Positions 14,166-31,612 of a stretch of 64,000 nt of DNA are shown piece after piece. Both the position numbers and the translations under genes were made by a program. Each line of letters starts with the position of its first letter. Position 1 is the first letter of the stretch. The notes below the pieces were generated by a model. The model was given only the letters and a program-made list of their open reading frames with translations, was not told where the DNA came from and did not search any database. Location of the stretch: the NCBI GenBank assembly GCA_040002895.1, contig JBDUDP010000005.1, forward strand, positions 3,110 through 67,109, read 5' to 3'. This stretch comes from Gemmatimonadota bacterium. GTDB taxonomy: Bacteria; Gemmatimonadota; Gemmatimonadetes; Gemmatimonadales; GWC2-71-9.

Positions 14166-16736
14166 ATGTATCAACTCTTCCCGCGGCTCTCTATCCAGTG
14201 GAAGTTGCCTCTTCTCGTGACGGCCGTGATGCTTCTCATCATTGCGGCCCTGCTGGGCTTGGCATACCGCGAGGTGGAGCGGGTCTCGGCAGCAACAGTG
14301 TCCGAGCGACTTCAGACCCTCTCGACCCAGATTGAGACGTCGCTTCGCAGCAGCTCCGCTGCCTCCGAGCATGGCGCGCGTCGCCTCGCCTCGCTACCCG
14401 AAGCCCACCAGTACTTCCGATCGCCATCCTCCGCGGCGGCGGGGGTGTTGTTCGCGGCGATCGCCCGCATCGATGGTGATGACTCCACCGCGGCGGCGGT
14501 TGCGCTGCTCGATGTCGACGGGCGGCCGCTGGCGATCAGTGGGCGAATGCACGCCTCGATCGCATCGCTCCCACTCCCAGTGCTTGCGTCCCGCCTTGCA
14601 GCGTCTCCGGATTCCGCGGCGGTGGGGCCGCTGCAGGTCGTTGGTGGTAAGACCGTCTTTCCGGTCATCGCTGTCGTGACGGAAGGAGGGCGCGAGATCG
14701 GCCGACTCGTCCGCTGGCGGGTGGTGGTACCGAGACCATCGGCGCGGGCGCAGATCGGCGCACTGTTCGGTGGCGGCAGTGCACTGCTGCTCGGCACGCC
14801 GGGCGGAGCCTGGACCGATCAGGTGGAAGTGGTGCCGCAGCCCGAGCTCCCCATGGTCGCCACCACCGCGGCCATCCGCTATACCACCGCCGCCGGGCGT
14901 GGACATCTCGCGGCGGTCGCGTATGACTCCATCTCGGGGTGGTTCAGCGTGCTGGAAGTGCCGGACAGCGTTGTGGAGGCCCCGGCCAGGAATTTTGCGA
15001 CGCGGATCGGGATGATCGGGCTGGCGCTCTCGCTGCTCGCCACCGTGCTGGTCTGGTGGTTCGGCTACCGGATCTCGATCCCGATCCACCGGCTCACGGC
15101 AGTGGCCGACGCGATGGGGGCCGGGCGGGAGCGCGTCCGTGCTGCGGTGACTGGTGACGACGAAGTTGGTCGGCTTGCCCTGACCTTCAACCGCATGGCC
15201 GATCGCATGGAAGCGGGGGCTGCCGCGCGGCAGGCGTCGGAGCGCCAGTGGCGCCTCCTCTTCACCCACAATCCCGTGCCGATGTGGGTCTTTGAGCCCA
15301 CATCGCTCCGTTTCCTCGCCGTCAACGATGCGGCCGTCAAACAGTACGGTTACTCGCGCGCGGAATTCCGCCAGCTGACCCTGCGCGATATTCGCCCGCC
15401 CGAACATGTGGGGATTCTGCTGGAGACGGTCGCCGATGGACTCCGGGAAAATCATACTGTGCGCCAGTTTCGGCACCGCCGCAAGGATGGCACCTTCTTC
15501 GATGTTGAGCTTACCGGAAACAACGTCGAGTTCAATGGTACCCCTGCGCGGTTCGTCATCGCGCAGGACATCACGGTACGCCAGGCACTTGAGTCCCAGT
15601 TGCGCCAGTCGCAGAAGATGGAGGCGGTAGGGCGGCTGGCCGGCGGCGTCGCCCACGATTTCAACAACTTGCTCGCGGTCATCATCGCCTATACCGAGCT
15701 GGTGCGATTCGATACTCCCGACGACGATCCGCATGCTGCCGACCTTGACGAGGTTAAGGCCGCTGGCGAACGCGCGAGCGCACTCACACGCCAGTTGCTG
15801 ACCTTCTCGCGCCGTGATGTGGTGCTTCCTGCGGTGGTCGACCCCAACGGCGCCGTCGCGGCGGTTGACAAGTTGCTGCGGCGACTGATTGGTGAGGATA
15901 TCCACGTGGTGGCCGAGCTCGCTCCTGAACCCGGCGCCATCCACGTCGATCCCGGACAATTTGAACAGGTCCTCATCAATCTGGCGGTCAACGCGCGTGA
16001 TGCCATGCCGACGGGTGGCACGTTGACGATCCGAACCGAGCAGGTGACCGTTGACGAGGCGAGTCGAGAGCTTCACGGCCTACCAGAGGCAGGGCGCTTC
16101 GTGGTGATCTCCGTGAACGACACCGGCGTGGGGATGACGCCCGACGTCCGGAGCCACATCTTCGAGCCGTTCTTCACCACCAAGGAGGTGGGGAAGGGGA
16201 CCGGCCTCGGCCTCGCCACGGTCTATGCCATTGTCACGCAGGCGGGCGGAAGCGTCTCGGTTTATTCCGAGCTGGGGACGGGGAGCACGTTCCGGCTTTA
16301 CTTCCCGGTCGTCGCGGCTCCCGATGCCGTCGCGGCGATTACATCGGGCCAGCATCCCGTGGTGGGAGGCCACGAGACGATTCTGCTGGTCGAGGATGAC
16401 GCCGCGGTGCGTGCCGCCGCCGTCAACGTCCTGCAGCGGCTGGGGTACACCGTACTGGGCGCGGAAGGGGCAGACGATGCCGCCGCCATAGTTGCGCGGC
16501 ACGCCGGGGTCATCGATCTGGTCATCAGCGACGTCGTGATGCCGGGCACCGATGGTCCCACGCTCCTGCACCACCTACGCAACGAGCGGCCGGGGATCAA
16601 GACCTTGCTGATGTCGGGGTATACCGGCGACGCGATCACGCGGCGCGGGGTCATGGAGAGCGGGGTGCCTTTCCTGCAGAAACCCTTCACGGTGGGTCGA
16701 CTGGGCAGGATGGTGCGAGAGGTGCTCGACGGTTGA
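14166..16736 (+). CDS. Hybrid sensor histidine kinase (periplasmic sensor, HAMP, PAS, HisKA, HATPase, receiver)
   Basis: Two TM segments flank a ~270-aa extracytoplasmic region. The HAMP region carries '[17 protein letters not shown]'. A PAS region follows. H-box '[12 protein letters not shown]', G-boxes 'DTGVGM' and 'GKGTGLGLA', and receiver '[18 protein letters not shown]'. Confidence 0.9.
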
Positions 16737-18493: not shown

Positions 18494-19894
18494 CTAGATG
18501 TGGATGGCCCGGCCCATCGAGTCGAGCGCCGCCTCGGCGATCGCCTCCGAGAGCGTCGGGTGCGCGTGAATCGCGAGGTCGACTTCCTCGACGGTGTACT
18601 CATTGGTGCGCGCCATGACCAACTCGCCAATCAACTCCGAGGCGTGCCCGCTGACGATGTGCGCGCCCACGATCTCGCCGTACTTCTTGTCGCGAATGAT
18701 TTTCACGAAGCCGTCGGTCTCGTTGGTCGCGCGCGCGCGCCCGTTGGCGGAGAACGGGAAGCGACCGACCTGGATGTCGAGGCCTTTTTCCTTGGCCTGT
18801 TCTTCGGTGAGCCCCACGCTGGCCACCTCGGGATGACAATAGGTCACACTCGGCACGTTGCTGTAGTCGATCGCCTTGGGCGCATGGCCCGCGATCACCT
18901 CGGCCACGTGCACCCCTTCGCGCGTGCCCTTGTGGGCCAGCATCGGCGGTCCGGCGACGTCGCCGATGGCGTAGATCCCCTTCACGCTGGTCTGCAGGGT
19001 CGTGGGATCGACCTGGATGAAGCCGCGGTCGGTGAGCTTCACGCCAACCTTCTCGAGGCCGATCGCCTCGGTGTTCACGGCGCGTCCGGCCGCCATCAGC
19101 ACCTTCTCCGCGGTCACGCTCTGCGACTTGCCACCCACTTCCAGCTGGAGGGTGACGCCACTGTCCTTCACCTCCGCCTTCACGACCTTCACCCCGGCCA
19201 GCACGGTGATGCCACGCTTCTTGAAGGACTTCGCGATCACGTCGGAGCACTCGGCATCCTCGACCGGCAGGATCCGCGGCAGCGCCTCGACCAACGTGAC
19301 CTCGCTCCCGAAGGCATTGAAGATGTCGGCGAATTCCGAGCCCACGGCGCCGCCGCCCACAATGGCGAGGGTCTTCGGAGCCTGCTCGAGAAAGAGCGCC
19401 TCGTCGGAGGTGATCACGGTGGTGCCATTCACGGTGAGGCCGACCTGGGGAATCCCCTTGGTGCGCGACCCGGTGGCCACCACGATTGCCTTCGTCGCGG
19501 TGATGGTATCGCCGCCGACCGTGACCGTGGTGGCGGAGGCCAGGATGCCGGTGCCCTTGATGACCGTGATCTTGTTCTTCTTCATCAGGAACTCGACGCC
19601 CTTGGAATTCTGCTCGGCCACCTTGCGTGAACGCTTCATCGCCACGCCATAGTCCACCACCACGTCGCCCACGGTGATGCCGAGTTCCCTGGCGTCCTTG
19701 CGGATCAGGTTGGCCGTGGACGAGCTGTGCAGCAGGGCCTTGGTCGGGATGCACCCGATGTTGACGCAGACGCCGCCGAGCTTCTCTTTCTCGATGACGA
19801 CGGCGCTGAGGCCGAGCTGCGCGGCACGAATGGCTGCCGGATAGCCGGCCGGCCCACCACCCACGACCACCACGTCAAACGACTGATTTGCCAC
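18494..19894 (-). CDS. lpdA: Dihydrolipoyl dehydrogenase (E3)
   Basis: 'DVVVVGGGPAGY', redox-active 'GGVCVNIGCIPTK', and C-terminal 'HAHPTLSE'. GTG start with GGAG 10 nt upstream. Confidence 0.95.
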   Translation of the reverse strand: MANQSFDVVVVGGGPAGYPAAIRAAQLGLSAVVIEKEKLGGVCVNIGCIPTKALLHSSSTANLIRKDARELGITVGDVVVDYGVAMKRSRKVAEQNSKGVEFLMKKNKITVIKGTGILASATTVTVGGDTITATKAIVVATGSRTKGIPQVGLTVNGTTVITSDEALFLEQAPKTLAIVGGGAVGSEFADIFNAFGSEVTLVEALPRILPVEDAECSDVIAKSFKKRGITVLAGVKVVKAEVKDSGVTLQLEVGGKSQSVTAEKVLMAAGRAVNTEAIGLEKVGVKLTDRGFIQVDPTTLQTSVKGIYAIGDVAGPPMLAHKGTREGVHVAEVIAGHAPKAIDYSNVPSVTYCHPEVASVGLTEEQAKEKGLDIQVGRFPFSANGRARATNETDGFVKIIRDKKYGEIVGAHIVSGHASELIGELVMARTNEYTVEEVDLAIHAHPTLSEAIAEAALDSMGRAIHI

Positions 19895-19933
19895 GAGTAA
19901 AGCTCCGCAATAGAGTCAGAAACCATAATTCTC

Positions 19934-19996
19934 GAGAGAGGAGAAAGGAGAGAAGAGAGAAGAGCCTTCTCCTCTCTCCTCTCTCCTCTCTCCTTC
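19934..19996. repeat. Homopurine/homopyrimidine imperfect inverted repeat (long hairpin) between pdhC and lpd
   Basis: A 31-nt all-purine tract (gagagaggagaaaggagagaagagagaagag, 19934-19964) is followed after 'cc' by a ~30-nt all-pyrimidine tract (ttctcctctctcctctctcctctctcctt). The core stem is GAGAAG-AGC-CTTCTC and is extendable with bulges. The composition is atypical for this GC-rich sequence. Confidence 0.8.
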
Positions 19997-19999
19997 CGC

Positions 20000-21232
20000 T
20001 TACCAGACTAAGGCCAACGGATTCTCCAGCATCCCCACCAGCGTCTTGAGGAAGGCGGCACCACTGGCGCCGTCGATCACCCGATGATCGCAGGAGAGGG
20101 TCATCCGCATCCGCCGGCGGGCCACGATGGCGCCGTTGTGCACCACCGGCTTCTCCTCGATGCGCCCGACCGCGAGGATCGCGGCCTCGGGCGGATTGAT
20201 GATCGCCGTGAATTCATCGATGCCGAACATTCCGAGGTTCGACACCGAGAAGGTGGCGCCGGTGTACTCCTCCGGCTTGAGCCGCTTCTCGCGCGCCCGA
20301 CCCGCGAGTTCACGCACCTCGCCGGCGATCTCGCGCAGTCCCTTCTGGTCGGCATGGCGGATGATCGGTGTGATCAGTCCCTCGTCGATCGCGACGGCAA
20401 CGCCGATGTGGACGTCCTGCCACTGCCGGATGCGATCGTCCAGCCACCAGGCATTCACGTTGGGATGCTGCGTGAGTGCGGCGGCCGACGCCCGGATGAT
20501 CAGGTCGTTGAACGAGAACTTCCCCTTGTCGTCCGAGGCCAGCAGCGCCACGCGGGCGTCATGCGCCCGCTCCATGTCCACTTCAGCCGTGAGGTAGAAG
20601 GTCGGAATGGGGCCGATGGATTGCACCAGCCGCTTGGCGATCGCCTTGCGCATCTGCGACAGCGGAATGTCGCTGAAGGTCGACACCGAAATGCCGTCCG
20701 TGCGTCCGCCGCCAGCCGGTGCCGCTGCGAGCTGTTCGAGATCGCGTGCGATGACCCTGCCCTCCGGGCCCGATCCGGCAACCGAGGCGAGATCGAGCCC
20801 GCGGTCGGCGGCAATGCGCTTTGCCAAGGGCGACGCCTTCACGCGTCCGCCGGCCGCCGCGGGCGCCGCCGATGTGGCCGGCGCCGCTTGTAGGGCCGGC
20901 GCTTGCGTCGGCGTTGCAAGCGGCGCCTCTTGTACGGGCGCCGCAAGCGGCGCCCCTACAGCCGGCGCCGCCTCGCCACCGGGCACCGCTTCGCCTGCTT
21001 CACCGATCCAACCCACCGGCTGCGCCACGGGCACTGTGCTTCCGGCGGGCACCACGTGCTTGAGCATGATGCCGGCCGCGCGGGCCACCAGCTCCATGAC
21101 GGCCTTGTCGGTCTCCACTTCGGCGAGGACATCGCCGACGGCTACCGCATCGCCTTCGTTCTTCTTCCACTCGACGAGACGGCCTTCTTCCATCGTCGGG
21201 GAGAGTGCTTCCATCACCACTTTGGTCGCCAT
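20000..21232 (-). CDS. pdhC: Dihydrolipoamide acetyltransferase (E2) of the pyruvate dehydrogenase complex, single lipoyl domain
   Basis: Lipoyl domain 'LAEVETDKAVMEL', an Ala/Pro linker, E3-binding 'ASPLAKRIAADRGLDL..V.GSGP.GR', and catalytic 'DHRVIDG'. The start is placed at Met19 (MATKVVMEALSPTMEEG). Confidence 0.9.
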   Translation of the reverse strand: MATKVVMEALSPTMEEGRLVEWKKNEGDAVAVGDVLAEVETDKAVMELVARAAGIMLKHVVPAGSTVPVAQPVGWIGEAGEAVPGGEAAPAVGAPLAAPVQEAPLATPTQAPALQAAPATSAAPAAAGGRVKASPLAKRIAADRGLDLASVAGSGPEGRVIARDLEQLAAAPAGGGRTDGISVSTFSDIPLSQMRKAIAKRLVQSIGPIPTFYLTAEVDMERAHDARVALLASDDKGKFSFNDLIIRASAAALTQHPNVNAWWLDDRIRQWQDVHIGVAVAIDEGLITPIIRHADQKGLREIAGEVRELAGRAREKRLKPEEYTGATFSVSNLGMFGIDEFTAIINPPEAAILAVGRIEEKPVVHNGAIVARRRMRMTLSCDHRVIDGASGAAFLKTLVGMLENPLALVW

Positions 21233-21236
21233 GTCG

Positions 21237-22217
21237 TCAGTCCCGGTAGCAGACGCGGCGGACGGCGGCGGCGATCTTGCCCGCATCCGTCTTGGCGGCC
21301 TTTTCGAGGTGCTTGTTGTAGGGCATCGGCACGTCGGCCTGAGTCACCCGCAGCACGGGAGCGTCGAGGTCATTGAACGCCTCGCGCTGGATCAGGTCGA
21401 CGACTTGTGCACCGACGCCGGCGAAGGCCCACCCTTCTTCGGCCACGACGCAGCGGTTGGTCTTGGCCACCGACGCGAGGATGCACTCCTCGTCGAGCGG
21501 TCGGATAGTGCGCAGGTCGATCACCTCGGCGTCGATTCCCTCGCCTTCGAGCGTCTTGGCCGCGTTGAGGGCCGGCGCGACAGTCTTGGAGTGGCAGACG
21601 ATCGTGACCTGCGTGCCGGCCCGCTTGATGTCGGCCTTGCCGATCGGGGTGACGTACTCCTCATCGGGCACTTCGCCCTTGAGGTTGTAGAGCATCTCGC
21701 CTTCGATGAAGATCACCGGGTTCGGATCACGGATCGCCGCCTTGAGCAGGCCCTTGGCATCGGCCGGCGTGGCCGGCATGACGACCTTGAGGCCGGGGAT
21801 GTGGGCATACCAGCTCTCGAACGCCTGCGAGTGCTGGGCGCCGAGCTGCAGGGCTGCGCCGCCCGGCCCGCGAATCACGATGGGGCAGCCGATCTGGCCG
21901 CCGCTCATGTAACGAATCTTGGCCGCGGCGTTGACGATCTGGTCGATCGCGAGCAACGCGAAGTTCCAGGTCATCATCTCGATCACCGGCCGGAGGCCCA
22001 CCATCGCGGCCCCGACGCCGATGCCGGTAAAGCCGAGCTCCGCGATCGGGGTGTCGACCACGCGCATCGGTCCGAACTCCTCGAGCAGGCCGCGCGAGAC
22101 CTTGTAGGCTCCATCATACTCGGCCACTTCCTCGCCCATCAGGAAGACGTCGCCGTCGCGCTGCATCTCTTCACGGAGCGCCTGATTCAGCGCATCACGG
22201 TAGCTAAGGATCGCCAT
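21237..22217 (-). CDS. pdhB: Pyruvate dehydrogenase E1 component beta subunit
   Basis: 'ILSYRDALNQALREEM..D..VF.MGEEV..Y.GAYKVS.GL' and a transketolase-like C-terminus. The start at Met12 overlaps the pdhA stop (TGATG). Confidence 0.95.
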   Translation of the reverse strand: MAILSYRDALNQALREEMQRDGDVFLMGEEVAEYDGAYKVSRGLLEEFGPMRVVDTPIAELGFTGIGVGAAMVGLRPVIEMMTWNFALLAIDQIVNAAAKIRYMSGGQIGCPIVIRGPGGAALQLGAQHSQAFESWYAHIPGLKVVMPATPADAKGLLKAAIRDPNPVIFIEGEMLYNLKGEVPDEEYVTPIGKADIKRAGTQVTIVCHSKTVAPALNAAKTLEGEGIDAEVIDLRTIRPLDEECILASVAKTNRCVVAEEGWAFAGVGAQVVDLIQREAFNDLDAPVLRVTQADVPMPYNKHLEKAAKTDAGKIAAAVRRVCYRD

Positions 22218-23242
22218 CAGCTCTCCTCCGGGGCGTAGACATCGGTCCACAGCTCCGAGGCGTCGGGCTCGGGCGATTCCTCGGCGAAGGTCACCGCATC
22301 GGCCACCTCGGCCACCACCTCGGCGTCGAGTGCGGCAAGCGCGGCATCGTCAAGCAGGTCGAGCTCGCGCATCCGGGCCTCGAGCAGCGCGATGGGGTCG
22401 CGCATCCGGGACTCCTCGAGTTCCTCCTTGCTGCGATAGGTGCCGCTGGCGGCATCCGACATCGAGTGGCCCACGTAGCGGAAGCAGCGAATGTCGAGCA
22501 GGGTGGGGCCGTCGCCGGCGCGTGCACGTGCCACGGCCACATCCATGGCTTGGCGCACCGCGACCACGTCCTGCCCATCGACTTCGACGCCCGGCATCCC
22601 GTAGGAGGCAGCGCGCAGGGAGAGCTCGGTGATCGCCGCGGCGCGCTTCATGGCCGTGCCCATGCCATAGCCGTTGTTCTCGATCGCGAAGATGGCCGGC
22701 AGCTTCCACAGCCCTGCCATGTTGAGCGCCTCGTGGAACGACCCGATGTTGGCGGCCGCCTCACCGAAGTAGGTCAGCGAGACCTGGTCGGTCTTGCGGT
22801 ACTTGGCGGCCCAGGCAAAGCCGGCACCGAGCGGGATCTGGCCGCCCACGATGCCGTGGCCGCCCATGAAGCCCCGCGAGAAATCGAACAGGTGCATCGA
22901 GCCGCCCTTGCCCTTGGAGCAGCCGGTGGCCTTGCCGAAGAGCTCCGCCATGATCGCGCGGGCGCTGAGGCCGCGCGCGAGCGCCTGTCCGTGCTCGCGG
23001 TAGGCGCTCACGACGTAGTCGTCGTCGCGCAGCGCGGAGATCGTGCCCACGGCCACCGCCTCCTGGCCAATGTAGAGATGGCAGAAGCCGCCGATCTGGC
23101 CGATGGAGTAGGCCTCACCGGCCCGCTCCTCGAAGCGGCGAATCAGCAGCATCATGCGCAGCCAATCGTGGTACTGATCGGCGAACGGGGCATCGGCGCC
23201 ACGACGCGTGGAGCGCGACGTGTTTTCGGTCGACACAGCCAT
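22217..23242 (-). CDS. pdhA: Pyruvate dehydrogenase E1 component alpha subunit
   Basis: 'GFCHLYIGQEAV', a TPP-binding 'GDGA/GEAAANIG..HE..N'-like block, and 'YR..GHSMSD'. Confidence 0.95.
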   Translation of the reverse strand: MAVSTENTSRSTRRGADAPFADQYHDWLRMMLLIRRFEERAGEAYSIGQIGGFCHLYIGQEAVAVGTISALRDDDYVVSAYREHGQALARGLSARAIMAELFGKATGCSKGKGGSMHLFDFSRGFMGGHGIVGGQIPLGAGFAWAAKYRKTDQVSLTYFGEAAANIGSFHEALNMAGLWKLPAIFAIENNGYGMGTAMKRAAAITELSLRAASYGMPGVEVDGQDVVAVRQAMDVAVARARAGDGPTLLDIRCFRYVGHSMSDAASGTYRSKEELEESRMRDPIALLEARMRELDLLDDAALAALDAEVVAEVADAVTFAEESPEPDASELWTDVYAPEES

Positions 23243-24195
23243 TACGAAGTCCCCTTGGCGGAGCGGGCCTGATCCCAGGCATGGTAGGACGAGCGGGTCA
23301 GCGGCGAACTCTCGACATGCGAAAAGCCCATCGAAAGGCCGATCTGCTTCAGTTCGGCAAATTCATCGGGCGTGTAGTAGCGGACCACCGGCAGGTGACT
23401 CTCCGACGGGCGCAGGTACTGCCCCATCGTCACGATATTCACGTCGCTGCGGCGCAGGTCGCGCAGGCAGGTGAGGATCTCGTCCCACTCTTCGCCCATG
23501 CCCAGAATGATGCCCGACTTGGTGAGGGCCGTGGCGTCCATCGCGCGCGCATTGGCGAGCACCCGCAGCGCGCGGTCGTAGCGTCCGCCCGGACGGGCAA
23601 GTCGATAGAGTCGCTCCGCCGTCTCGAGATTGTGGTTGAGAATGTCGGGCCGCGCATCCATCACCAACTGCAGTGCTCGCTCGGACCCCTTGAAGTCGGG
23701 AATCAATACCTCGACCGACGTCTCCGGGAGTCGCTGCTTGATCTCGGTGATGCAGCCGGCGAAAGCCTCGGCGCCTCCATTGGGGAGGTCGTCACGATCC
23801 ACCGACGTGATTACCACGTGCTCCAGCCCCATCCGCTCCACGGCGTCGGCCAGCCGGGCCGGCTCGGCGGCGTCGAACGCCTTGGGCGTGCCGTGGGAGA
23901 CGGCGCAGTAGGCACAGTTCCGGGTGCAGACGTCGCCGAGGATCATGAAGGTGGCGGCCTTGTGCTCCCAGCACTCGCCGATGTTGGGGCAGCGCGCCTC
24001 TTCACAGACCGTATGGAGGCCGAGTTCCCGCATCATCTTCTGGAGATGGAGGTAACCGGCCCCGCCGGGGGCCTTCACCTTGAGCCACGACGGCTTCCGC
24101 GCCGGTGCCATGGGCAGGACGGCGGTGGGCAGGACGGGCTCCGGCAGGGGAGATCCCGAGGACTGACGGGTCAGTTGAATCAGTGGTACGGCCAC
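23242..24195 (-). CDS. lipA: Lipoyl synthase
   Basis: Two cluster motifs, 'CEEARCPNIGEC' and radical-SAM 'CTRNCAYCAV'. The stop overlaps the pdhA start. Confidence 0.95.
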   Translation of the reverse strand: MAVPLIQLTRQSSGSPLPEPVLPTAVLPMAPARKPSWLKVKAPGGAGYLHLQKMMRELGLHTVCEEARCPNIGECWEHKAATFMILGDVCTRNCAYCAVSHGTPKAFDAAEPARLADAVERMGLEHVVITSVDRDDLPNGGAEAFAGCITEIKQRLPETSVEVLIPDFKGSERALQLVMDARPDILNHNLETAERLYRLARPGGRYDRALRVLANARAMDATALTKSGIILGMGEEWDEILTCLRDLRRSDVNIVTMGQYLRPSESHLPVVRYYTPDEFAELKQIGLSMGFSHVESSPLTRSSYHAWDQARSAKGTS

Positions 24196-24295
24196 GCGGA
24201 CTCTTGCTCCTCACCCAGTGGTGGGCGCCGGCGTCAACCGGCGCTAGCCCAACAAGATAGCCGAATTGGGGGGCTGGGGTGAGGGGTTGCGAATT

Positions 24296-25087
24296 CTATT
24301 TTCCGGCCTTGACCGCCCCGACAAAGAGCACCGCAGAGGTCGGCGCTTGGGAGCCGCCTTCGGGTTCCCGGGTCACGGCGGTTGCTGCGACGGTGCCGGG
24401 AGGCAGGGTTACATCCTGCACCAATGCCCGGCCGTCTGCCCCCGGGTTGAAGGTCACCGACGGGATCGGCTTGCCGTCGACGATGAACCAGAGCTGATAG
24501 GCCTGGCCCGCCGGAGCGGTCTCGAGCGACGCCACCGAGAGCACCGCACTGCGCCGCTTCTGATCGACATAGACCTTCACGGCCGGCTTGGCATCGCCGG
24601 TGGAGGCGAGCGTGACCAACTCCACCGACGGGTCGGTGAGTCGTGCGATCATGGAGTCGCGCTGGGTGACGGCATCCAGGGTGCGTGCCGCAAAGGCGTT
24701 CGCCGTTGCGGTAGCCTGACGCTCCTGACCGAGATCGTGGTTGAGCTTGAAGACCACGAGCAGGGAGGCGGCGAGTGCCGCACCGAGCCAGAGTGGTGCC
24801 CGGGACCGACGCGAGGGGATCATGGGCAGCACCTTTGCTTCCACGGCCACCGGCTCGGGGTGGGCCACCGCGTGGGCCATGACCCGCTGCTTGAGCCCGG
24901 CCGGCAGTGCGACAGGCGTGCTCAGGGCCAGCGCGGAGAGGGCTTCGCGCGCGGCGGCGACATTGCTCGCGAGGGTCGGGTCGACCGCGAGCCGGGTCTC
25001 GAACTCGGCGCGCTCGGCCTCGTCGAGCAGCTCGAGCACGTACTCCTCGACCAGCTCATGCATGGGGTGACGCGACGAGTCGGTCAT
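24296..25087 (-). CDS. Anti-sigma factor, RskA-like (anti-sigma-K type) with a single TM
   Basis: N-terminal 'ELVEEYVLELLDEAERAEFE..L..DP'. A central TM 'LWLGAALAASLLVVF'. The C-terminal periplasmic block 'YQLWFIVDGKPIPSVTF..' is typical of the RskA domain. ATGA overlap with the sigma gene. Confidence 0.75.
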   Translation of the reverse strand: MTDSSRHPMHELVEEYVLELLDEAERAEFETRLAVDPTLASNVAAAREALSALALSTPVALPAGLKQRVMAHAVAHPEPVAVEAKVLPMIPSRRSRAPLWLGAALAASLLVVFKLNHDLGQERQATATANAFAARTLDAVTQRDSMIARLTDPSVELVTLASTGDAKPAVKVYVDQKRRSAVLSVASLETAPAGQAYQLWFIVDGKPIPSVTFNPGADGRALVQDVTLPPGTVAATAVTREPEGGSQAPTSAVLFVGAVKAGK

Positions 25088-25728
25088 GCGTACCCCTCCG
25101 GCCCAAGGGCGGTGAGCAGTTCGCGCAGTTTCCGCAGACCGAGGCGGACGCGCGTCTTCACGGTACCCAATGGCTCGCCCAGCCGCTCGGCGATCTCGGT
25201 CTGCGACAGGCCCTCGAAGTAGGCGAGGTCGAGTGCGGCGCGCTGCGAATCGGGCAGTTCCATGAGTGCGTCGCGGATCCGCCGGGCCTGCTCGTTGGCG
25301 ATCACATTGGCCACCGGAGAGGCAAACGCGCTACCCATCGCCGGGGCCGCGCTGCTGGCGCTCTCCGCCTCCGCCGCGTCGCTCAGGCGCCCACGACGCG
25401 TTCGCGAACGCACAGTATCGAGCGCCCGGCTGCGCGCGATGGTCGCGAGCCACGCCGCCACCGACCCGCGACCGGTCTCGAACCGTGATGCCTCGCGCCA
25501 CGCTTGCGCGAACGTATCGACCACGACTTCCTCGGCGTCCGCCTGTTCCCGGGTGATGCGCAGTGCGAGGCCGAGAAGATTCGGGGCAAAGCGATCGTAG
25601 AGTGTCGACATCGCCGCAGCGTCTCCCCGCGTCATGGCAAGCACGAGGGCAGCATCGTCAGGCACGTATCGCGCGGCGGCATGAACCATGAGCTGTCGGG
25701 CAATTCTCCAGGCGGAGCGAGGGAGCAT
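25084..25728 (-). CDS. ECF-type RNA polymerase sigma-70 family factor
   Basis: Region 2 'LYDRFAPNLLGLALRIT..ADAEEVVVDTFAQAW'. Region 4 'LP..QR.AL.LAYFEGLSQTEIAERLGEPLGTVKTRVRLGL.KLR'. Confidence 0.85.
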   Translation of the reverse strand: MLPRSAWRIARQLMVHAAARYVPDDAALVLAMTRGDAAAMSTLYDRFAPNLLGLALRITREQADAEEVVVDTFAQAWREASRFETGRGSVAAWLATIARSRALDTVRSRTRRGRLSDAAEAESASSAAPAMGSAFASPVANVIANEQARRIRDALMELPDSQRAALDLAYFEGLSQTEIAERLGEPLGTVKTRVRLGLRKLRELLTALGPEGYA

Positions 25729-25780
25729 GCAGCTGCGCGAATGCTACTGGTGCCCCCCAGTCGGTCACAAGTTTCCCGAT

Positions 25781-26230
25781 TCATGGGAGCGCCTGCGCTG
25801 GGTCACCCTTGAGATATACGAGTTGCGCACGTCGACCGTCGATTCGGACCAGCGCCACGTTCACCTGGTCGCTGAACCGTTCCTGCAGCAGGGTGACGCT
25901 CAGCCGCCCCTGGCCCACACGTCCGGACGCGGTGCCGTCGAGCGTGATCCGGACGCGATCCCCTTCCGTGACGATCGCCGATGGCAACAGTGTCACCCTG
26001 ACGCCCTGCTGATCGGTGAGCGTGATGCTGCGTGAGAGATAGGCTGCCACGGCGTCCCGGTTCAGTCCCGGCGGAAAATCATCATGGTAGACCCGGACCA
26101 CGGCGGTGACGTCGCGGCCATTGGCGACCAGCTCGACGCGGGCCGCGTGGACGGGATGCCAGGTCCAGGCGCCCAGGGCGACGACCAGCAACGCCACGCC
26201 GCTCAGCGCACGCAGTGCCCGGCCTACCAC
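25781..26230 (-). CDS. Exported small protein, DUF6702-like
   Basis: A signal peptide is followed by 'HPVHAARVELV..VVRVYHDDF', resembling the His-start beta-sandwich proteins found next to HupE-type genes. It overlaps the HupE stop by 7 nt. Confidence 0.45.
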   Translation of the reverse strand: MVGRALRALSGVALLVVALGAWTWHPVHAARVELVANGRDVTAVVRVYHDDFPPGLNRDAVAAYLSRSITLTDQQGVRVTLLPSAIVTEGDRVRITLDGTASGRVGQGRLSVTLLQERFSDQVNVALVRIDGRRAQLVYLKGDPAQALP

Positions 26231-26808
26231 GGCAACCGCTCCGCGGCCATGACCAGTGCCACGCTGGCCACGGTGGCCGAGGTAAGTCGCATCCGCCAGC
26301 GAGTGGCAGCCGATTGGTCCGCTGTGGCGCGTGCGATGACACGATCGGCCACGGCCAGCGAACCCACGAGCGTGGCGAGTACCAACGTCTGGCCGAGTTC
26401 GATTCCGATGTTGAAGCCGAGGAGTGGCAACGCCACACCTCCATCAAAGAGTGCCTGCAGCGTCGTGGCGAAGCCGGCACCATGCACCAGCCCGAACAGT
26501 CCTGCCAGCACTGGGCGCAGCGCGCCTGCGGGTCGGGTGCCGTGAGCGAACAGGTTCTCGGCCGCCGCGATCACGATGGTGCACGGAATCAGGAACTCCA
26601 CCAGCGGGATCGGGAAGTGCACGACGCCCAACGCCACGAGGGCCAGCGTGATGCTGTGCCCCACCGTGAATGCACTGACCACCATCATTCCGTGACGCCA
26701 GTCGCGCGGGCGATAGCTCGCCGCGAGTGCGGCCAAAAAGAGCAGGTGGTCGAGTGCCTCGATCGAGACGATGTGCTTGAATCCAACGGTGATGAACGTG
26801 CCGATCAT
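26224..26808 (-). CDS. HupE/UreJ family membrane protein (HupE_UreJ_2 type)
   Basis: 'GFKHIVSIEALDHLLFLAALAA', 'FTVGHSITLAL', 'GLVHGAGFA' and six hydrophobic helices. The start at Met20 gives an ATGA overlap with the TPR gene stop. Confidence 0.75.
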   Translation of the reverse strand: MIGTFITVGFKHIVSIEALDHLLFLAALAASYRPRDWRHGMMVVSAFTVGHSITLALVALGVVHFPIPLVEFLIPCTIVIAAAENLFAHGTRPAGALRPVLAGLFGLVHGAGFATTLQALFDGGVALPLLGFNIGIELGQTLVLATLVGSLAVADRVIARATADQSAATRWRMRLTSATVASVALVMAAERLPW

Positions 26809-28001
26809 GGCGTGACTCCTAGTGCGGTGGCGTGCGCGCGCAGGGCGATGTCTTCGGTGCCCCAACGCAGCGCCTCACGCATCGCGACGCGAGCCTCGGC
26901 GTCGCGGCCGCTACGGTGGAGTGCCCAGGCGTAGAGGTCCCAGCCGTACACGTCACGCCGGGTCGTGAGCTCCGCTTCGGCCTGTGCGAGCACGGTCGGG
27001 ACTTGGTGATTGGCGTCGAGCAGCGCGAGCCGCCACTGCCGATGCCACACCGTGGGGGGGGCTGCCGCGATGGTGGTCTCGAACGCGAGCATCATCCGAT
27101 CGGCTGCGGCGTGATCGCCAAGTTGCGAATGCGCCTGACTCGCGAGCGCGAAGGCAAGTGGATCCTCACCGGCGTTCATGGCCGCTTCGGCGCGCTCCAG
27201 CGCGCGCACGGGATCGTGCATGGCGAGGGCGAGCCGCGCCTGGGCCAGCAGGATCCTGGGGTCGTCTGCGACCACGCGAGCCGCCGCGTCGAGGGAATGG
27301 GTCGCGGCATCATACGCGCCAACGGTGAGCGCCAGCTCGCCGAGTCGCAGGTCGAACCAGGCGATCTGTTCGGCTGGCGTACCCGCGCGTCGCCGGGCTT
27401 CGTCGCGGGCCTGCTCCAGCAGCGTGCGGGCATGAGCGGAGCGACCGCGCAACGAGGCCCAGCGTGCGACGCGGGCGGCCACGGCAGGATCAGCACCGGC
27501 GCGGTCGAGCGGAGCAAAGATGCTGTCGGCCTGCAGGTAGTTTCCCAGCTCGAGATCGATCTCGCCGCGTAGCGAACGCGCACCGGCCGCCGTAGGGTCG
27601 GCCGACAGCAGGGAATCGGTCGCCGCCGCCGCCTCGAGGAAGCGATGTTGCCCTACCAGTGCGATGGCGAGCGCGTGAAAGGCCTCGCTGTTGTGCTGTC
27701 GGCGGTTGGCGAGCGAGATGCGCGCCTCCCGCTCGGCCAGTACAAGGTCCGCCGGGGTCCCGCGTTCGCGGGCGCGCTGGAGGTAGAGCGCGGCGAGCTT
27801 CAGGTGATCCATCGCGCCGGTGGGGTCGCGCAGGGCGCGAGCCTGATACCACACGATGTCGGCATCATGTTGCTTCCGCTCCGCCGCCACGTCCCACTGT
27901 GGCGACGACGCGGAGCGCGTGGGACCGCGCAGGGCAACAGCGGCAGTCGCGCTGAGTGCCACCACCACCGCCACCAGGGCGGTCACACGCACGGCATTCA
28001 C
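26805..28001 (-). CDS. Exported tetratricopeptide-repeat (TPR) protein
   Basis: Signal peptide 'VRVTALVAVVVALSATAAVA', then a repeated ~34-aa helical-pair pattern (A..Y/L..A...G....A). GTG start in a GTGA overlap. Confidence 0.7.
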   Translation of the reverse strand: MNAVRVTALVAVVVALSATAAVALRGPTRSASSPQWDVAAERKQHDADIVWYQARALRDPTGAMDHLKLAALYLQRARERGTPADLVLAEREARISLANRRQHNSEAFHALAIALVGQHRFLEAAAATDSLLSADPTAAGARSLRGEIDLELGNYLQADSIFAPLDRAGADPAVAARVARWASLRGRSAHARTLLEQARDEARRRAGTPAEQIAWFDLRLGELALTVGAYDAATHSLDAAARVVADDPRILLAQARLALAMHDPVRALERAEAAMNAGEDPLAFALASQAHSQLGDHAAADRMMLAFETTIAAAPPTVWHRQWRLALLDANHQVPTVLAQAEAELTTRRDVYGWDLYAWALHRSGRDAEARVAMREALRWGTEDIALRAHATALGVTP

Positions 28002-28576
28002 GGGTTGGCCGGGGCCAGGTACGGGAAGCCGCTGATGAAGGGCGAGTCGCTGGCCACGTTGTCCGTGGTGAGGCCGGGCGACACGTTGCTCGGATCGAGC
28101 AGCGGGCCAAAGATGGCCATGAGGCCGGCATCGACGACGTCATCGGTGAGCTTGCGCCCGCCGTAGCCGTTGGCCAATGCCCAGCTGAGCCAGCCCGCAG
28201 TGGCTGGATCCTTGTCGGTCTGCACGATCAACATGTCGGGCAACAGTACGGTGGCCAGCGTGTTCTGGACGGTCGCGTTCCGCCCGGCCACCGTCGCCAC
28301 GAAGTTCACCAGCTCGGCGCGGATAGTTGCCACATCGGTTGCCGGCCCGGTGCTGCCGTGCAGCGCGTGACTGCGCTTGGCGAGGAACACCTCGCTCACC
28401 AACGGATTGCCGAGCCGCTGGACCTGGTTGTACATCCGCGGGGTGGTGTCCATGGTGGTGGTCATGGTCTCGGTGTTGTCGCTGCACGCGGCGGCCAGGA
28501 CGGCCACCAGCAACAACGGCGCAGTGCGAAGCAGGGACATCGTTGCGTTCCTGGTCGGAGTCGGAGTGGTATTCAT
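27998..28576 (-). CDS. DUF4331 C-terminal-half protein with its own lipoprotein signal
   Basis: 'LLLVAVLAAAC' lipobox. 'VQRLGNPLVSEVF', 'GYGGRKLTDDVVD' and the terminal 'FPYLAPA' match the C-terminal half of DUF4331 proteins. The ATG at 28576 forms an ATGA overlap with the upstream stop. Alternative starts lie at 28594 and 28540. Confidence 0.7.
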   Translation of the reverse strand: MNTTPTPTRNATMSLLRTAPLLLVAVLAAACSDNTETMTTTMDTTPRMYNQVQRLGNPLVSEVFLAKRSHALHGSTGPATDVATIRAELVNFVATVAGRNATVQNTLATVLLPDMLIVQTDKDPATAGWLSWALANGYGGRKLTDDVVDAGLMAIFGPLLDPSNVSPGLTTDNVASDSPFISGFPYLAPANP

Positions 28577-29295
28577 CGGGAGATGGTCCCCCACATGCCG
28601 ATCTTGGCGTTGCCGCCGGCCGTCAACATCGACGTCGGAAGCTCGATCACGATTGCGGCAAGGTTGGCACCGAGCACGGCGTCGACGGCCTGACCGGCGG
28701 GCCGGAAGGCGGAGGCCGATGCCGTCGATGGAGTTGAGAGCGGGCCGGTGCTGGGACGGCGATCCGGCAGGATGCGGAAGAACTGCTCGAGATCGATGAA
28801 GAACGGATCATCACGCACGCCGGCGAACACCTGGATGCCGCTGGAGCTGCCCAGGATGCTGTTGATGCTGCCCTTCACCACCGGATCGGCGCCGAGGACG
28901 ACATTCTGCATCGCGCCCTTCACCGTCGGGGCCAGCGGACCGCGCACCTGCACCTGCTGCGACGCGCCGGAGCCGGTGAACGTGATCTGGAACACGAGGT
29001 CTTCCATCGCATCACCGGTGTTGTCGATCTTGATCTGGTACAGCAGGTTCTTGTCGAACGAGGCCGTGGCGGTCGTCGACGGTGAGATGAACGGCTGGGA
29101 ATTCAGCACCAGCGCGATCCGACCTGCCGTCGTGGGGAAGGCATAGAAGTCGGTCATGTCCTGCTTGGGATTGAGTTCGACATCCGCCGTGTCCTGGTGG
29201 TCGGACGCCACCGCGATCTGGCGGGCCCCCATCAGGCCGGCGATGCCGATGGCCACGGCAAGGCCGAGGCGCATGGGTCGTGAAATGGTGATCAT
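28573..29295 (-). CDS. DUF4331 N-terminal-half protein (secreted)
   Basis: A signal peptide is followed by 'ASDHQDTADVELNPKQDMTDFYAF', 'LLYQIKIDNTGDAMEDL', 'FAGVRDDPFFIDL' and 'AIVIELP..IGMWGTISR', which match the N-terminal half of DUF4331. AAGGAG lies 10 nt upstream of the ATG at 29295. Confidence 0.75.
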   Translation of the reverse strand: MITISRPMRLGLAVAIGIAGLMGARQIAVASDHQDTADVELNPKQDMTDFYAFPTTAGRIALVLNSQPFISPSTTATASFDKNLLYQIKIDNTGDAMEDLVFQITFTGSGASQQVQVRGPLAPTVKGAMQNVVLGADPVVKGSINSILGSSSGIQVFAGVRDDPFFIDLEQFFRILPDRRPSTGPLSTPSTASASAFRPAGQAVDAVLGANLAAIVIELPTSMLTAGGNAKIGMWGTISR

Positions 29296-29456
29296 CCTGC
29301 TGAAGCTCCTTGAAGAAGTGGTCTCGCTGTTGCGGACGTGGGGGGTACGCGAGCAATCCCGGAACGGATCTCTGGCTGTCTTCACCGCCGGCCCAGGCTG
29401 CCACTACCCCCGAGGCCAGGGCATCGGCACCTTCCAGCACCCCAACCAGGTGCCCG

Positions 29457-30185
29457 ATGCTCAGCGATCCACTGATCCTCGCCGCGCAGGACCTTGCGGT
29501 CCGCTATCCCAAGTTTCTCCTCGGCCCCTTGTCATTCGGCATCCGCGGAGGCGAGACGGTGGCCCTTCTCGGCGCCAACGCGGCCGGGAAGACCACGCTG
29601 CTGCGCGCGGTCACCGGGCGCATCCGGGAGCGCGAAGGGCTGGTGCAGCTGTCGGGTCGGGATCCGCTGAAGGCCCCGCCAGAGTGGCGGGCCAAGGTCG
29701 GCTTCGCGGCCGAGAAGCCGATGATTGATGCCGCCTTGCGGGTGCGCGAGTGGTACGCCTTTCTTGCCGACTGTTATCCCACGTGGGACGTGGCTTATCA
29801 GCGCGACCTGTCCGCGCGGCTCGGTCTCGATGACAGCATGCGCGTGGGCGTCCTCTCCCGAGGCAGCGCCGTGAAGGCGGCCTACATCGGCGCCGAGGCG
29901 TATCGTCCAGATCTGTTGATTCTCGACGAACCGACCAACGGGCTCGATCCGGTGGTGCGTACCGAGATCCTCGCCATGCTGCGCGACTGCTTCGCTGCAG
30001 CGCCCTCTCGGGCGTTGTTCTTCTCGTCGCATCTGCTCGAGGACGTCGAGGCGCTCTGCGACCGGGCCCTCCTGCTTCGAGACGGACAGCTGGTCGGCGA
30101 GCTGTCGCGGGAGGTGCTCACCGAGGCGCGCGCCTCGGGCCGCCTCACGGCGCTGGTTACCGAGGGGTTGCGGGGCACGCCGTGA
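29457..30185 (+). CDS. ABC transporter ATP-binding protein (ABC-2/exporter type)
   Basis: Walker A 'GANAAGKTTLL', signature 'LSRGSAVKA', Walker B 'LLILDEPTNGLD'. The start is placed at Met50 of ORF 29310..30185. Confidence 0.85.
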   Translation: MLSDPLILAAQDLAVRYPKFLLGPLSFGIRGGETVALLGANAAGKTTLLRAVTGRIREREGLVQLSGRDPLKAPPEWRAKVGFAAEKPMIDAALRVREWYAFLADCYPTWDVAYQRDLSARLGLDDSMRVGVLSRGSAVKAAYIGAEAYRPDLLILDEPTNGLDPVVRTEILAMLRDCFAAAPSRALFFSSHLLEDVEALCDRALLLRDGQLVGELSREVLTEARASGRLTALVTEGLRGTP

Positions 30186-31612
30186 ACTGGCGCGGCTATC
30201 GGGCCTGCGTCCGACGCGAGGTGCGTCGCGGGCGGCGCGGAATGATGGTCTACACCCTGCTGGCCCTGATGATGCTGGTGCTGGCCTTGGTTGTCGGCGA
30301 GGAGGTGGCACCGGTGCTCGGTGCACTCTCACTCCCCATCGCGATCTTCGTCCTGTTCGGCCCATCGGCCGATCTCGCCCGCGACAAGATCCACGGACAC
30401 TTTGAATTCAATCGCACGTTGCCGATTCCGCCGCGGATGATCGCGGCCGGCTGGCTGAGTGGGACTGCGATTCGGCTGTTGCCGGTGGCGCTCATCGTGT
30501 TCATGAGTCTGTTGGCATTCCGTGGTTCGGGTGAGTTCGACACCCGCGGCGATCGCGCGGCGTTGCTGCTCTTCCCCGTGCTGGCCTATGGGACGGCGTG
30601 CGGCGTGGTGTGGGGGCTGCTGGCCGTGAGCGCCCGATGGACGGTTCGCCGATTGTGGTGGCTGCCGCTGTCGCTCTGGCTGTTGCCACAGCTGGTCGCG
30701 ACCGTGCTCCCGGCGACGATGCAGGCATCGCTGGAGGAGTGGCTCGCCCGGCTCGGACACACGCTGGTGGATTGGCTGGGGCAGCCGGATGGTCGACTCG
30801 CGCTGGGCCTGCTGCTGCTTGGCGCACTCGCCATGATCTTTCTCGCCTCCACCCTGTTGTTCGCCTCCGGGGTGGTGCGCCATCAATACGATTCCACCGG
30901 CCTCGGCGTGATCCTCGGGGAGGCTCCGAAGCGCGAGCTCGAGGCGATCGGCGCGGGCGTGGTCCTCGCCGTGGCACGGCTGCGGTTGCGACTCGCGACC
31001 GAGCAGTTTCGACGTGAACTGATCATCCTCGTGCTGTTGTTTGCCGTGGCGGCCGCTGGACCGGGCGAGACGCGAGAGTGGGCGCGTCGCTACATCCCCA
31101 TCCTGGCGGCGCTGCTGCCGGCCAGCGTCGCCTTCCAGCTGCTTGCCGCCCGCACCACCGGTCAGCTCGAGGGATTGCAACAGCTCCCGCAGTCGCGTGC
31201 CGCCATTGCGCTCGGTCACCTGGTCGCCATTGGCGTCATGGCCGTCCCAGGTGCGCTGATCATTCTGGTGACGCACGCGCTCGAAGGCCGCGCGCCCACA
31301 TTTGCTGGCGCGGTGGAGCTGTGGGGATGGTTTGTGGTGATGGCATGGGCTGCGGCGTCGGTGGGGCTCTGGTTCCGGCCTCGCTACCTGCCCTACCTCA
31401 TCGCGGGGATCATCGCACTGGTCGCCGGCGCCGTGGCCGTGCTCGGTGGGACAGGGGTGTTGCTGCGACTCGCCGGTGCCCCCGGGTCATTGGCCGCGTG
31501 GCGTGAATCGCTCGGCCTGATGCTTCCCATCATGACGCTGCTGTTGGTGGGGGCGGCGGGCGTTCCACTCTTCGCGTACGCGCTCAGCCGCTACCAGCAT
31601 CGCCCGACCTGA
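30182..31612 (+). CDS. Polytopic membrane protein, putative permease partner of the ABC ATPase
   Basis: 476 aa with about 12 hydrophobic helices. GTGA overlap with the ATPase stop. No family recognised. Confidence 0.6.
   Translation: MNWRGYRACVRREVRRGRRGMMVYTLLALMMLVLALVVGEEVAPVLGALSLPIAIFVLFGPSADLARDKIHGHFEFNRTLPIPPRMIAAGWLSGTAIRLLPVALIVFMSLLAFRGSGEFDTRGDRAALLLFPVLAYGTACGVVWGLLAVSARWTVRRLWWLPLSLWLLPQLVATVLPATMQASLEEWLARLGHTLVDWLGQPDGRLALGLLLLGALAMIFLASTLLFASGVVRHQYDSTGLGVILGEAPKRELEAIGAGVVLAVARLRLRLATEQFRRELIILVLLFAVAAAGPGETREWARRYIPILAALLPASVAFQLLAARTTGQLEGLQQLPQSRAAIALGHLVAIGVMAVPGALIILVTHALEGRAPTFAGAVELWGWFVVMAWAAASVGLWFRPRYLPYLIAGIIALVAGAVAVLGGTGVLLRLAGAPGSLAAWRESLGLMLPIMTLLLVGAAGVPLFAYALSRYQHRPT

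Follow-up and report, generated by a model that had tools for sequence, protein, structure and literature searches.

An ECF18-type operon with a split DUF4331 protein in Gemmatimonadota: a candidate relay for nickel and copper capture and import in the cell envelope

Seven minus-strand genes, designated g1 to g7, run from position 29295 down to 24296 of a 64,000-nt stretch of Gemmatimonadota DNA (contig JBDUDP010000005.1, ~68% G+C; hereafter the window, to which all coordinates refer unless another locus is named). They encode the two halves of a split DUF4331 protein, a tetratricopeptide repeat (TPR) protein, a HupE_UreJ_2 permease, a DUF6702-like exported protein and, at the distal end, a SigK-like extracytoplasmic function (ECF) sigma factor with an RskA-type anti-sigma factor. 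The best explanation of their arrangement is a single operon, read from an ECF18-type promoter at 29346–29369, and we take this operon, with a probability of about 0.55, to be an ECF-regulated relay that captures Ni(II)/Cu(II) in the cell envelope and imports it. The cleavage sites, metal binding, metal identity, transport direction, protein contacts and inducing signal of such a relay are what we infer here from sequences, gene neighbourhoods and models. Nickel is our first choice of metal and copper our second, Ni(II) being common to amino-terminal Cu(II)- and Ni(II)-binding (ATCUN) sites, to DUF6702 and to the HupE/NicO permeases. In the literature searched, the DUF4331–TPR core, its ATCUN-type N-terminus and its wiring to an ECF18-type promoter are undescribed: DUF4331 (PF14224) was not mentioned among the open-access papers searched, and nothing relevant was found on HupE with anti-sigma, TonB and nickel or on RskA with HupE.

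All seven open reading frames (ORFs) lie where an initial annotation of the window had placed them, and every family label that it had assigned is backed by Pfam hidden Markov models (HMMs), the TPR matches of g3 being weak and below the gathering threshold (GA).

The DUF4331–TPR core

The gene neighbourhood of the cluster was compared across loci gathered by homologue lookups and by a scan that covered one genome for each species (12-sequence alignment; 80 loci). Their genes were assigned with HMMs made from the proteins of the window, and relatives of g1 are over-represented in this sample. Full flanks are available for 49 loci, 34 from Gemmatimonadota and 15 from Bacteroidota, and in all 49 the split DUF4331 pair is followed by the TPR gene. 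The synteny elsewhere of the families that the initial annotation had grouped together is thereby confirmed for the DUF4331–TPR core; the HupE and DUF6702 genes and the sigma pair are frequent companions, not universal ones. HupE_UreJ_2 and DUF6702-like genes occur in 21 of the Gemmatimonadota loci, the sigma/anti-sigma pair in 22 and a TonB-dependent receptor in five, while the Bacteroidota loci hold HupE in four cases, DUF6702 in none, the sigma pair in four and a TonB-dependent receptor in 11. The five-gene order of the window is found at many Gemmatimonadota loci, so that the arrangement is not due to chance. A TPR gene also accompanies DUF4331 in Armatimonadota-like, Nostoc, Streptomyces, Comamonadaceae, Marinobacter and Pseudoalteromonas loci, and the full-length DUF4331 genes of other phyla likewise have a TPR gene next to them. 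Because the pairing holds in these phyla as well as in all 49 loci, DUF4331 and TPR form the core of the module and the remaining genes are frequent accessories.

The TPR protein of the window, g3 (26805–28001; 398 aa), carries an N-terminal signal or anchor. One locus (L085:13013–14980) has an ORF of 655 aa in which a HupE_UreJ_2 domain and a g3 homologue are joined, which places the TPR partner at the permease; in five related Bacteroidota loci (L063, L068, L074, L075 and L077) the TPR protein has its own gene, convergent with that of the permease.

DUF4331 is a large family (4088 matches in a 90%-identity cluster database; 2048 representative clusters) without a solved structure. No single chain of the window spans the whole domain of ~421 profile positions. 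Instead, g1 (28573–29295; 240 aa) encodes an exported, soluble N-half whose Pfam alignment (124.3 bits versus a GA of 27) spans profile positions 1–90 and beyond, and g2 (27998–28540, in an ORF that extends to 28594; 180 aa) encodes a lipoprotein C-half that matches positions 232–420 (55.8 bits), each with its own export signal. The split is kept in all 80 loci retrieved from genomes, g1-like homologues of 236–247 aa are common, and full-length forms occur elsewhere. A protein identical to g1 is encoded in a metagenome-assembled genome from Gemmatimonadota. A frameshift or pseudogene as the source of the two ORFs was ruled out, since the length and position of the split are constant in hundreds of homologues; the conserved lipoprotein signal that the C-half has of its own also counters it. 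The lipobox of g2 (VLAAAC↓SDN, where ↓ marks predicted cleavage) is followed by the motif QVQRLGNP, which in full-length DUF4331 comes after the linker. Since g2 and most of its homologues carry the lipobox Cys (kept in at least 80% of 85 homologues from two phyla), a g1/g2 complex would be tethered to the membrane.

The AlphaFold2 model of g1 has a predicted local distance difference test (pLDDT) score of 88.7, and that of a full-length relative reaches a pLDDT of 91.8 with a predicted template modelling (pTM) score of 0.88, by which full-length DUF4331 appears to be one compact unit. The split site maps between consecutive strands (236–247 and 250–257) of the full-length model, so that the two chains of the window would have to reassemble by strand complementation. 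Neither phmmer nor a profile search, nor Foldseek with two models of high confidence, found a relative of DUF4331 in the PDB.

The N-terminus is among the features that suggest metal binding. The predicted signal-peptidase site of g1 (AVA↓SDHQDT) would yield a mature protein starting with Ser-Asp-His. A His at the third residue (NH2-X-X-His) characterises ATCUN sites for Cu(II)/Ni(II), such as those of serum albumin (DAH) and human Ctr1 (MDH). The context A/G↓S/A-D-H-x-D is present at the predicted cleavage site in 152 of 152 distinct DUF4331 sequences; other DUF4331 subfamilies read A↓SSHREAP or MSHH, and predicted mature residue 3 is His in every one examined. The predicted mature starts S/A-D-H, S-S-H and M-S-H resemble known ATCUN sites in having His at position 3, and differ from them in that the cleavage site is a prediction and that the carrier is a bacterial envelope protein of an unrelated, unsolved fold.

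The signal peptides themselves vary. In 27 of 64 high-GC DUF4331-N signal peptides, RR is followed by hydrophobic residues (e.g. TRRRFVLASG; L008, L016, L026 and L041), which suggests twin-arginine translocation (Tat) of DUF4331-N in some lineages; the g1 signal peptide of the window (MITISRPMRLGL...) has no twin arginine.

Promoter and sigma/anti-sigma pair

The initial annotation had described the five proximal genes as chained by overlaps. This stands for g2/g3 (GTGA), g3/g4 (ATGA) and g4/g5 (7 nt), whereas an ATGA overlap of g1 and g2 exists only if g2 starts at 28576, which would make it 192 aa long. The ATG at 28540 has AGGA in front, yields a typical lipoprotein signal (MSLLRTAPLLLVAVLAAAC) and agrees with orthologue calls; a 32-nt gap between g1 and g2 is therefore more likely. 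The start of g4 at 26808, which forms its overlap with g3, is preceded by an AGGAG Shine–Dalgarno sequence, g6 and g7 are joined by an ATGA overlap, and the 52-nt gap between g5 and g6 is read from the sequence as annotated.

About 50 nt 5′ of the g1 start codon lies ATCCGTTCCGGGATTGCTCGCGTA (29346–29369, minus strand), with a −35 ATCC, a 16-nt spacer and a −10 CGTA, in agreement with the published ECF18 consensus (−35 GCATCC, −10 CGTAT; PMC13492112, Table 4). By the window alone, this motif would not stand out (2 matches versus 0.89 expected), and the second match (22454–22477, plus strand, antisense within the E1 gene) is consistent with chance. Its weight derives from the conservation of its position across orthologues: ATCC-N16/17-CGTA is found within 260 nt 5′ of 76 of 87 orthologous DUF4331-N genes, where 0.023 are expected per region, and the orthologue consensus is (A/C)ATCC(G/A)-N15-CGTA. 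The motif also occurs 5′ of stand-alone sigma genes (L014, L019, L035, L054–57 and L082) and, on the opposite strand, ahead of divergent TonB-dependent receptor genes. The 52-nt gap between g5 and g6 contains no such motif, and the sigma pair would therefore be read through from the g1 promoter, which implies positive autoregulation. The idea of a self-regulated module, already present in the initial annotation, is strengthened by the motif in front of g1, of the orthologues and of separately transcribed sigma genes. The motif is absent 5′ of DUF4331 in the Armatimonadota-like, Nostoc, Streptomyces, Rhizobium, Comamonadaceae and Rhodobacterales loci, and ECF control is therefore clade-specific. 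The regulatory link is real and recurs in three phyla, and it is not universal.

Two loci display this regulation in distinct layouts. In L019 (6842–9644), the split DUF4331 N/C pair is duplicated in tandem with a near-identical ATCC-N16-CGTA promoter before each copy, and further downstream, in convergent orientation, come the sigma and anti-sigma genes, which have a motif of their own. On a plasmid or chromid of Pseudoalteromonas donghaensis HJ51 (L097; NZ_CP032091.1, 3582–9198), an ECF sigma gene and an RskA_C anti-sigma gene are followed by a perfect TGCATCC-N16-CGTAT promoter and by genes for a DUF4331 of full length (A↓SSHREAP), an Ig-like lipoprotein and a TPR protein, and then for a HupE_UreJ_2 permease that carries a fused N-terminal-His domain. 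This host is a culturable gammaproteobacterium with unsplit parts and would make a good experimental model.

The sigma factor g6 (25084–25728; 214 aa) has regions 2 and 4 by Pfam and NCBIfam. Its best PDB match is Mycobacterium tuberculosis SigK (4NQW, 1e-27), and it stays below the NCBIfam cutoffs of the SigK and PRK12519 subfamilies (172.6 bits versus 222 and 149.4 versus 226, respectively). It holds no cysteine and so lacks the SigK Cys pair (C133/C183), which is present in 94% of ECF18 and 56% of ECF19 members (PMC7509140). Module-linked sigmas match g6 far better than do the unpaired ECF sigmas of the same loci and form a coherent group. The anti-sigma factor g7 (24296–25087; 263 aa) is of the single-pass RskA type, with a hydrophobic segment at about residues 98–115, an RskA_C match of 71.9 bits (GA 29.4) and a match of 125.3 bits to the NCBIfam equivalog NF052375 (cutoff 100). 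It has no Cys and therefore no zinc-binding anti-sigma motif; no PDB relative was found for it. Compared with SigK/RskA of M. tuberculosis and with groups ECF18/ECF19, the pair is alike in that g6 is nearest to SigK, g7 has RskA_C, the genes are adjacent and overlapping and the promoter fits the ECF18 consensus; it differs in its missing cysteines, in its scores below the SigK cutoffs and in a regulon made of DUF4331, TPR and permease rather than of fasciclin antigens.

Four placements of the sigma pair relative to the module occur in Gemmatimonadota and Bacteroidota: downstream of it, upstream in the same orientation, divergent from it and convergent with it. The impression, given by the first loci compared (L001–L006), that the adjacency reflects mere vertical synteny is ruled out by these four arrangements in two phyla, by the Pseudoalteromonas locus and by the shared promoter.

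Metal carriers, permeases and competing readings

The permease g4 (26224–26808, in an ORF that extends to 26865; 194 aa) is an inner-membrane HupE_UreJ_2 protein (133.1 bits, GA 24.5) whose motifs GFxHI...DHxLF, GHSxTL, HGAGFA and GIELGQ are kept in 36 homologues. HupE_UreJ_2 follows DUF4331, or DUF4331–TPR, in Gemmatimonadota, Bacteroidota, Comamonadaceae, Marinobacter, Lichenicola and Pseudoalteromonas, and the same position is taken by a classical HupE_UreJ in Rhizobium leguminosarum and by NicO-like permeases in Streptomyces and Nostoc punctiforme. Outside Gemmatimonadota, wherever the permease has a signal peptide, the first residue beyond the predicted cleavage site is His (A↓HKASD, A↓HPLGNF, A↓HTAGG, A↓HQLST and A↓HTAV). 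Those of Gemmatimonadota, g4 included, have no such N-terminal His extension, and the DUF6702-like gene g5 follows instead. With HupE/UreJ and NiCoT (NicO) transporters such as R. leguminosarum HupE, g4 shares its nature as a membrane component and the conserved first-helix His/Asp motifs, and Bacteroidota, Rhizobium and other operon relatives also share an N-terminal His in cis; it differs in belonging to HupE_UreJ_2 (PF13795) and not to PF04955, in lacking an N-terminal His of its own and in having no hydrogenase or urease gene linked to it in the window.

The g5 protein (25781–26230; 149 aa, exported) is a borderline match to Pfam DUF6702 (PF20420; 25.2 bits versus a GA of 24, profile positions 61–139 only), and its orthologues in L001 and L004 match strongly; no PDB relative of g5 was found. 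HPxH stands directly after the hydrophobic segment in 30 of 30 g5 homologues, in the window as AWTW↓HPVHAARVE, with a Trp at −1 that is non-canonical for signal peptidase. With a permease devoid of N-terminal His and an HPxH motif on g5, the N-terminal His would thus be supplied either in cis or in trans.

This arrangement recalls a system described in 2025 (Nat Commun; PMC12537917), in which PaDUF6702 binds Ni (5.6 pM), Co and Cu through its N-terminal His, such a His follows signal-peptide cleavage in 65% of the DUF6702 family, and N-terminal-His ‘anglerase’ domains (Ang-1/Ang-2) fused to HupE/UreJ-2 bind Cu and Ni. The initial annotation saw no experimentally defined function for any of the five proximal genes; this no longer holds, DUF6702 and the HupE/UreJ-2 fusions having been characterised biochemically in that study. 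Both systems have a HupE_UreJ_2 permease together with an exported β-rich domain, whose N-terminal His binds Cu/Ni in the published case and which is represented here by the DUF6702-like g5 with its putatively N-terminal HPxH; proteobacterial relatives of the operon even carry N-terminal-His::HupE_UreJ_2 fusions of exactly that kind. In the window the His protein is encoded separately, downstream of the permease gene, and because its His domain is not fused to the permease, the cluster would work like the anglerase system without being a member of it. The neighbours of Ang-1 are mostly described as of ‘unknown function’, and DUF4331, a TPR partner, a TonB receptor and ECF control go unmentioned (PMC12537917); the search method used there would miss DUF4331 because its His is at position 3 and not at position 1.

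TonB-dependent receptors are the commonest extra neighbours of the module (22 loci). The linked receptors consist of CarboxypepD_reg, Plug and barrel domains, with no Pfam match to a signalling domain at E ≤ 0.001. The logic is similar to that of FecI/FecR signalling, in which an ECF sigma and a single-pass anti-sigma, subject to autoregulation, control a TonB-dependent receptor and uptake genes; the differences are the RskA-type anti-sigma, the CarboxypepD_reg N-terminal domain of the receptors and the lack of a linked receptor in the window. A 943-aa ORF at 45897–48728 (minus strand) has a weak, generic match to a TonB-receptor HMM (4e-13), with no ECF18-type motif nearby and no apparent operon link. 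In six Bacteroidota operons (L063, L072, L077, L083, L084 and L085; at ~10.2–12.0 kb of each locus, except for L072 at 6156–6653), small His-rich proteins of 117–165 aa (with stretches such as HAFKSKTHQHSNYHTHTHFKTHHVEDH) are encoded between the DUF4331-C/TPR genes and the TonB receptor. An N-terminal hydrophobic segment and, at the C-terminus, a conserved PPPxx are shared by these proteins, which match no Pfam or NCBIfam family. Taken with the three Ni/Co-type permease families, the N-terminal His motifs and the co-regulated receptors, these proteins strengthen the link to metals that the initial annotation had suggested.

The relay that we propose would operate as follows. In its resting state, the membrane anti-sigma g7 would keep the SigK-like sigma g6 inactive until an envelope signal, plausibly metal availability, frees it. 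Free g6 would then transcribe g1–g7 in a positive feedback and, in relatives, also the gene of a TonB-dependent outer-membrane receptor. Soluble g1 and lipoprotein g2 would rejoin by β-strand complementation into one membrane-tethered DUF4331 unit, the processed Ser-Asp-His N-terminus of g1 forming the putative ATCUN-type Cu(II)/Ni(II) site, and the TPR protein g3 may act as a scaffold near the permease. As a free-standing N-terminal-His metallochaperone, the counterpart of the HupE/UreJ-2-fused anglerase domains, g5 would hand the ion to the permease g4 for import.

Several observations weigh against this relay. The NicO family also includes exporters, and ATCUN sites bind so tightly that they would serve sequestration no less well than hand-off. 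All the signal-peptidase sites are predicted ones, and that of g5 (W↓H) is non-canonical. The linked receptors fit no substrate-specific subfamily, with only sub-threshold generic matches, and no co-regulated receptor was found in the window. Upstream of g1, where the initial annotation had proposed to look for Fur/Zur/NikR-type boxes, there is no inverted repeat of at least 8 bp (exact 6-bp seed), and neither a metalloregulator box nor a riboswitch was found there. Direct metal sensing by g7 is not suggested by its periplasmic domain, in which neither a His nor a Cys is conserved. DUF4331–TPR occurs without an adjacent permease in six of the 34 Gemmatimonadota loci, two of the 15 Bacteroidota loci and three loci of other phyla, and some DUF4331 genes adjoin type II secretion or sortase genes.

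Part of these observations would fit a role of DUF4331–TPR as a binding or processing partner for a TonB-dependent substrate, either a metallophore–metal complex or another scarce nutrient, perhaps as a surface-exposed lipoprotein complex that feeds the receptor in Bacteroidota, with HupE and DUF6702 as optional additions. Besides the frequency of receptors, above all in Bacteroidota, and the many loci with the core and no permease, it is favoured by the lipoprotein nature of the C-half, whose Cys is followed in Bacteroidota by an acidic run (CDDDD, CDKND) like the surface-export signal of that phylum, and by the many invariant Asp residues of DUF4331, which suggest Ca-type or catalytic sites. 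We regard this role as unlikely, given that the receptors match no known subfamily, that only five of the 34 Gemmatimonadota loci have one nearby and that a free ion is suggested both by the X-X-His N-terminus and by the interchangeability of the ion permeases. We judge it improbable that a SigK/RskA-type switch here governs a general regulon of the envelope or cell surface that has nothing to do with metals, in which DUF4331 and TPR would be structural or enzymatic and the permease incidental. The model for such a regulon is that of MPT70/MPT83, fasciclin proteins that are the hallmark of the mycobacterial SigK regulon, and it is echoed by the pair of one secreted and one lipoprotein chain. 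The fasciclin genes beside Streptomyces DUF4331 loci and the type II secretion and sortase genes that adjoin DUF4331 also favour a regulon of this kind. Such a regulon would also accord with the statement that the inducing signal and role of SigK/RskA are unknown (PMC7509140). Against it stand the three Ni/Co-type permease families at the same position in six phyla, and coincidence would hardly account for the N-terminal His motifs and the His-rich proteins.

The same parts could instead protect from metal excess, with DUF4331, DUF6702 and the His-rich proteins sequestering Cu/Ni and the ECF pair acting as a CnrYXH-like metal-stress sensor. The exporters of the NicO family and the lack of a metal-starvation regulator box upstream of g1 are compatible with this role, as are the very high affinities of ATCUN sites and of PaDUF6702, which is called a ‘metal sequesterase’ (PMC12537917). 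ECF sigmas typically answer envelope stress, and CnrH is an ECF sigma for Ni/Co resistance (as cited in PMC7826278). We nevertheless rate protection from excess as quite unlikely: TonB-dependent receptors, which serve import only, share the promoter or sit within the operon, HupE is an established Ni importer (Brito 2010, as cited in PMC12537917), and the N-terminal-His::HupE/UreJ-2 architecture is read as metal capture for uptake (PMC12537917). The capture-and-import relay is accordingly retained as the preferred reading.

A wider reading is offered tentatively, as possible rather than probable. DUF4331–TPR may be an unrecognised and widespread envelope capture device for Ni(II)/Cu(II), with a new fold and an ATCUN-type N-terminus, that would act via N-terminal-His carriers on HupE/UreJ/NicO permeases; it may also be what SigK/RskA-type switches chiefly control in Gemmatimonadota, Bacteroidota and some Gammaproteobacteria, and could even give rise to the signal that governs them. 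Through the present analysis, the DUF4331 family gains a testable role and partners (a TPR scaffold, N-terminal-His carriers, Ni/Co-type permeases and a TonB-dependent receptor), the anglerase concept of 2025 is widened to a multi-protein relay, and a regulon and promoter are defined for SigK/RskA-like ECF pairs beyond Actinobacteria. Metal limitation and metal excess can now be tested as candidate signals of SigK/RskA in culturable carriers. If the wider reading holds, metal availability would be a natural signal for the SigK/RskA-type sigma/anti-sigma family. If the relay is real, trace-Ni/Cu acquisition would have to be annotated differently in Gemmatimonadota of soil, in Bacteroidota and in a large number of Proteobacteria.

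Other DUF4331 neighbourhoods and flanking genes

Some DUF4331 contexts are of another kind. On Rhodobacterales plasmids (L093, Jannaschia, and L095, Paracoccus; ~5.3–12.3 kb), long DUF4331 proteins of 535–545 aa (A↓SSHREAP) are encoded among GspD/J/K and A24 prepilin peptidase genes, with neither TPR nor permease, a context that the metal-relay model does not explain. Fasciclin-domain genes adjoin DUF4331–TPR–NicO clusters in Streptomyces anulatus (L092, 11286–11939) and Streptomyces sp. CA-256286 (L099, 9369–9899), where a class F sortase gene comes directly after DUF4331 in L099; these fasciclin neighbours may be a sign that SigK-type regulons and the DUF4331 module are more deeply connected. 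In about 10 Gemmatimonadota loci, a DUF1684 gene and a gene for a 439-aa Redoxin/AhpC-TSA protein follow the anti-sigma gene (e.g. L012:14017–15084 and L026:14834–16153). The window has neither of them, lipA being the next gene after the anti-sigma gene there, and a Redoxin gene is near DUF4331–TPR in L087.

The genes on both flanks of the operon are unrelated to the cluster. A sigma-70 promoter and terminator search gave nothing useful; a single terminator-like hairpin within g5 (26083–26102, minus strand) is consistent with chance, 2.0 such sites being expected, and no riboswitch or other Rfam element was found in 23500–30500. A hybrid histidine kinase (HAMP-PAS-HisKA-HATPase-receiver) is encoded at 14166–16736 on the plus strand, with no apparent operon link. 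Upstream, 29457–31612 (plus strand) holds a divergent ABC transporter ATPase gene, its true start probably being an ATG near 29457, and after it an overlapping 476-aa ORF that has no Pfam match; no ECF18-type motif is present on the strand of this pair, which adjoins the operon only in close relatives (L005 and L006). Downstream, 18494–24195 (minus strand) holds housekeeping genes for lipoyl synthase and then for the E1-alpha, E1-beta, E2 and E3 components of a 2-oxoacid dehydrogenase complex, which are syntenic in close relatives.

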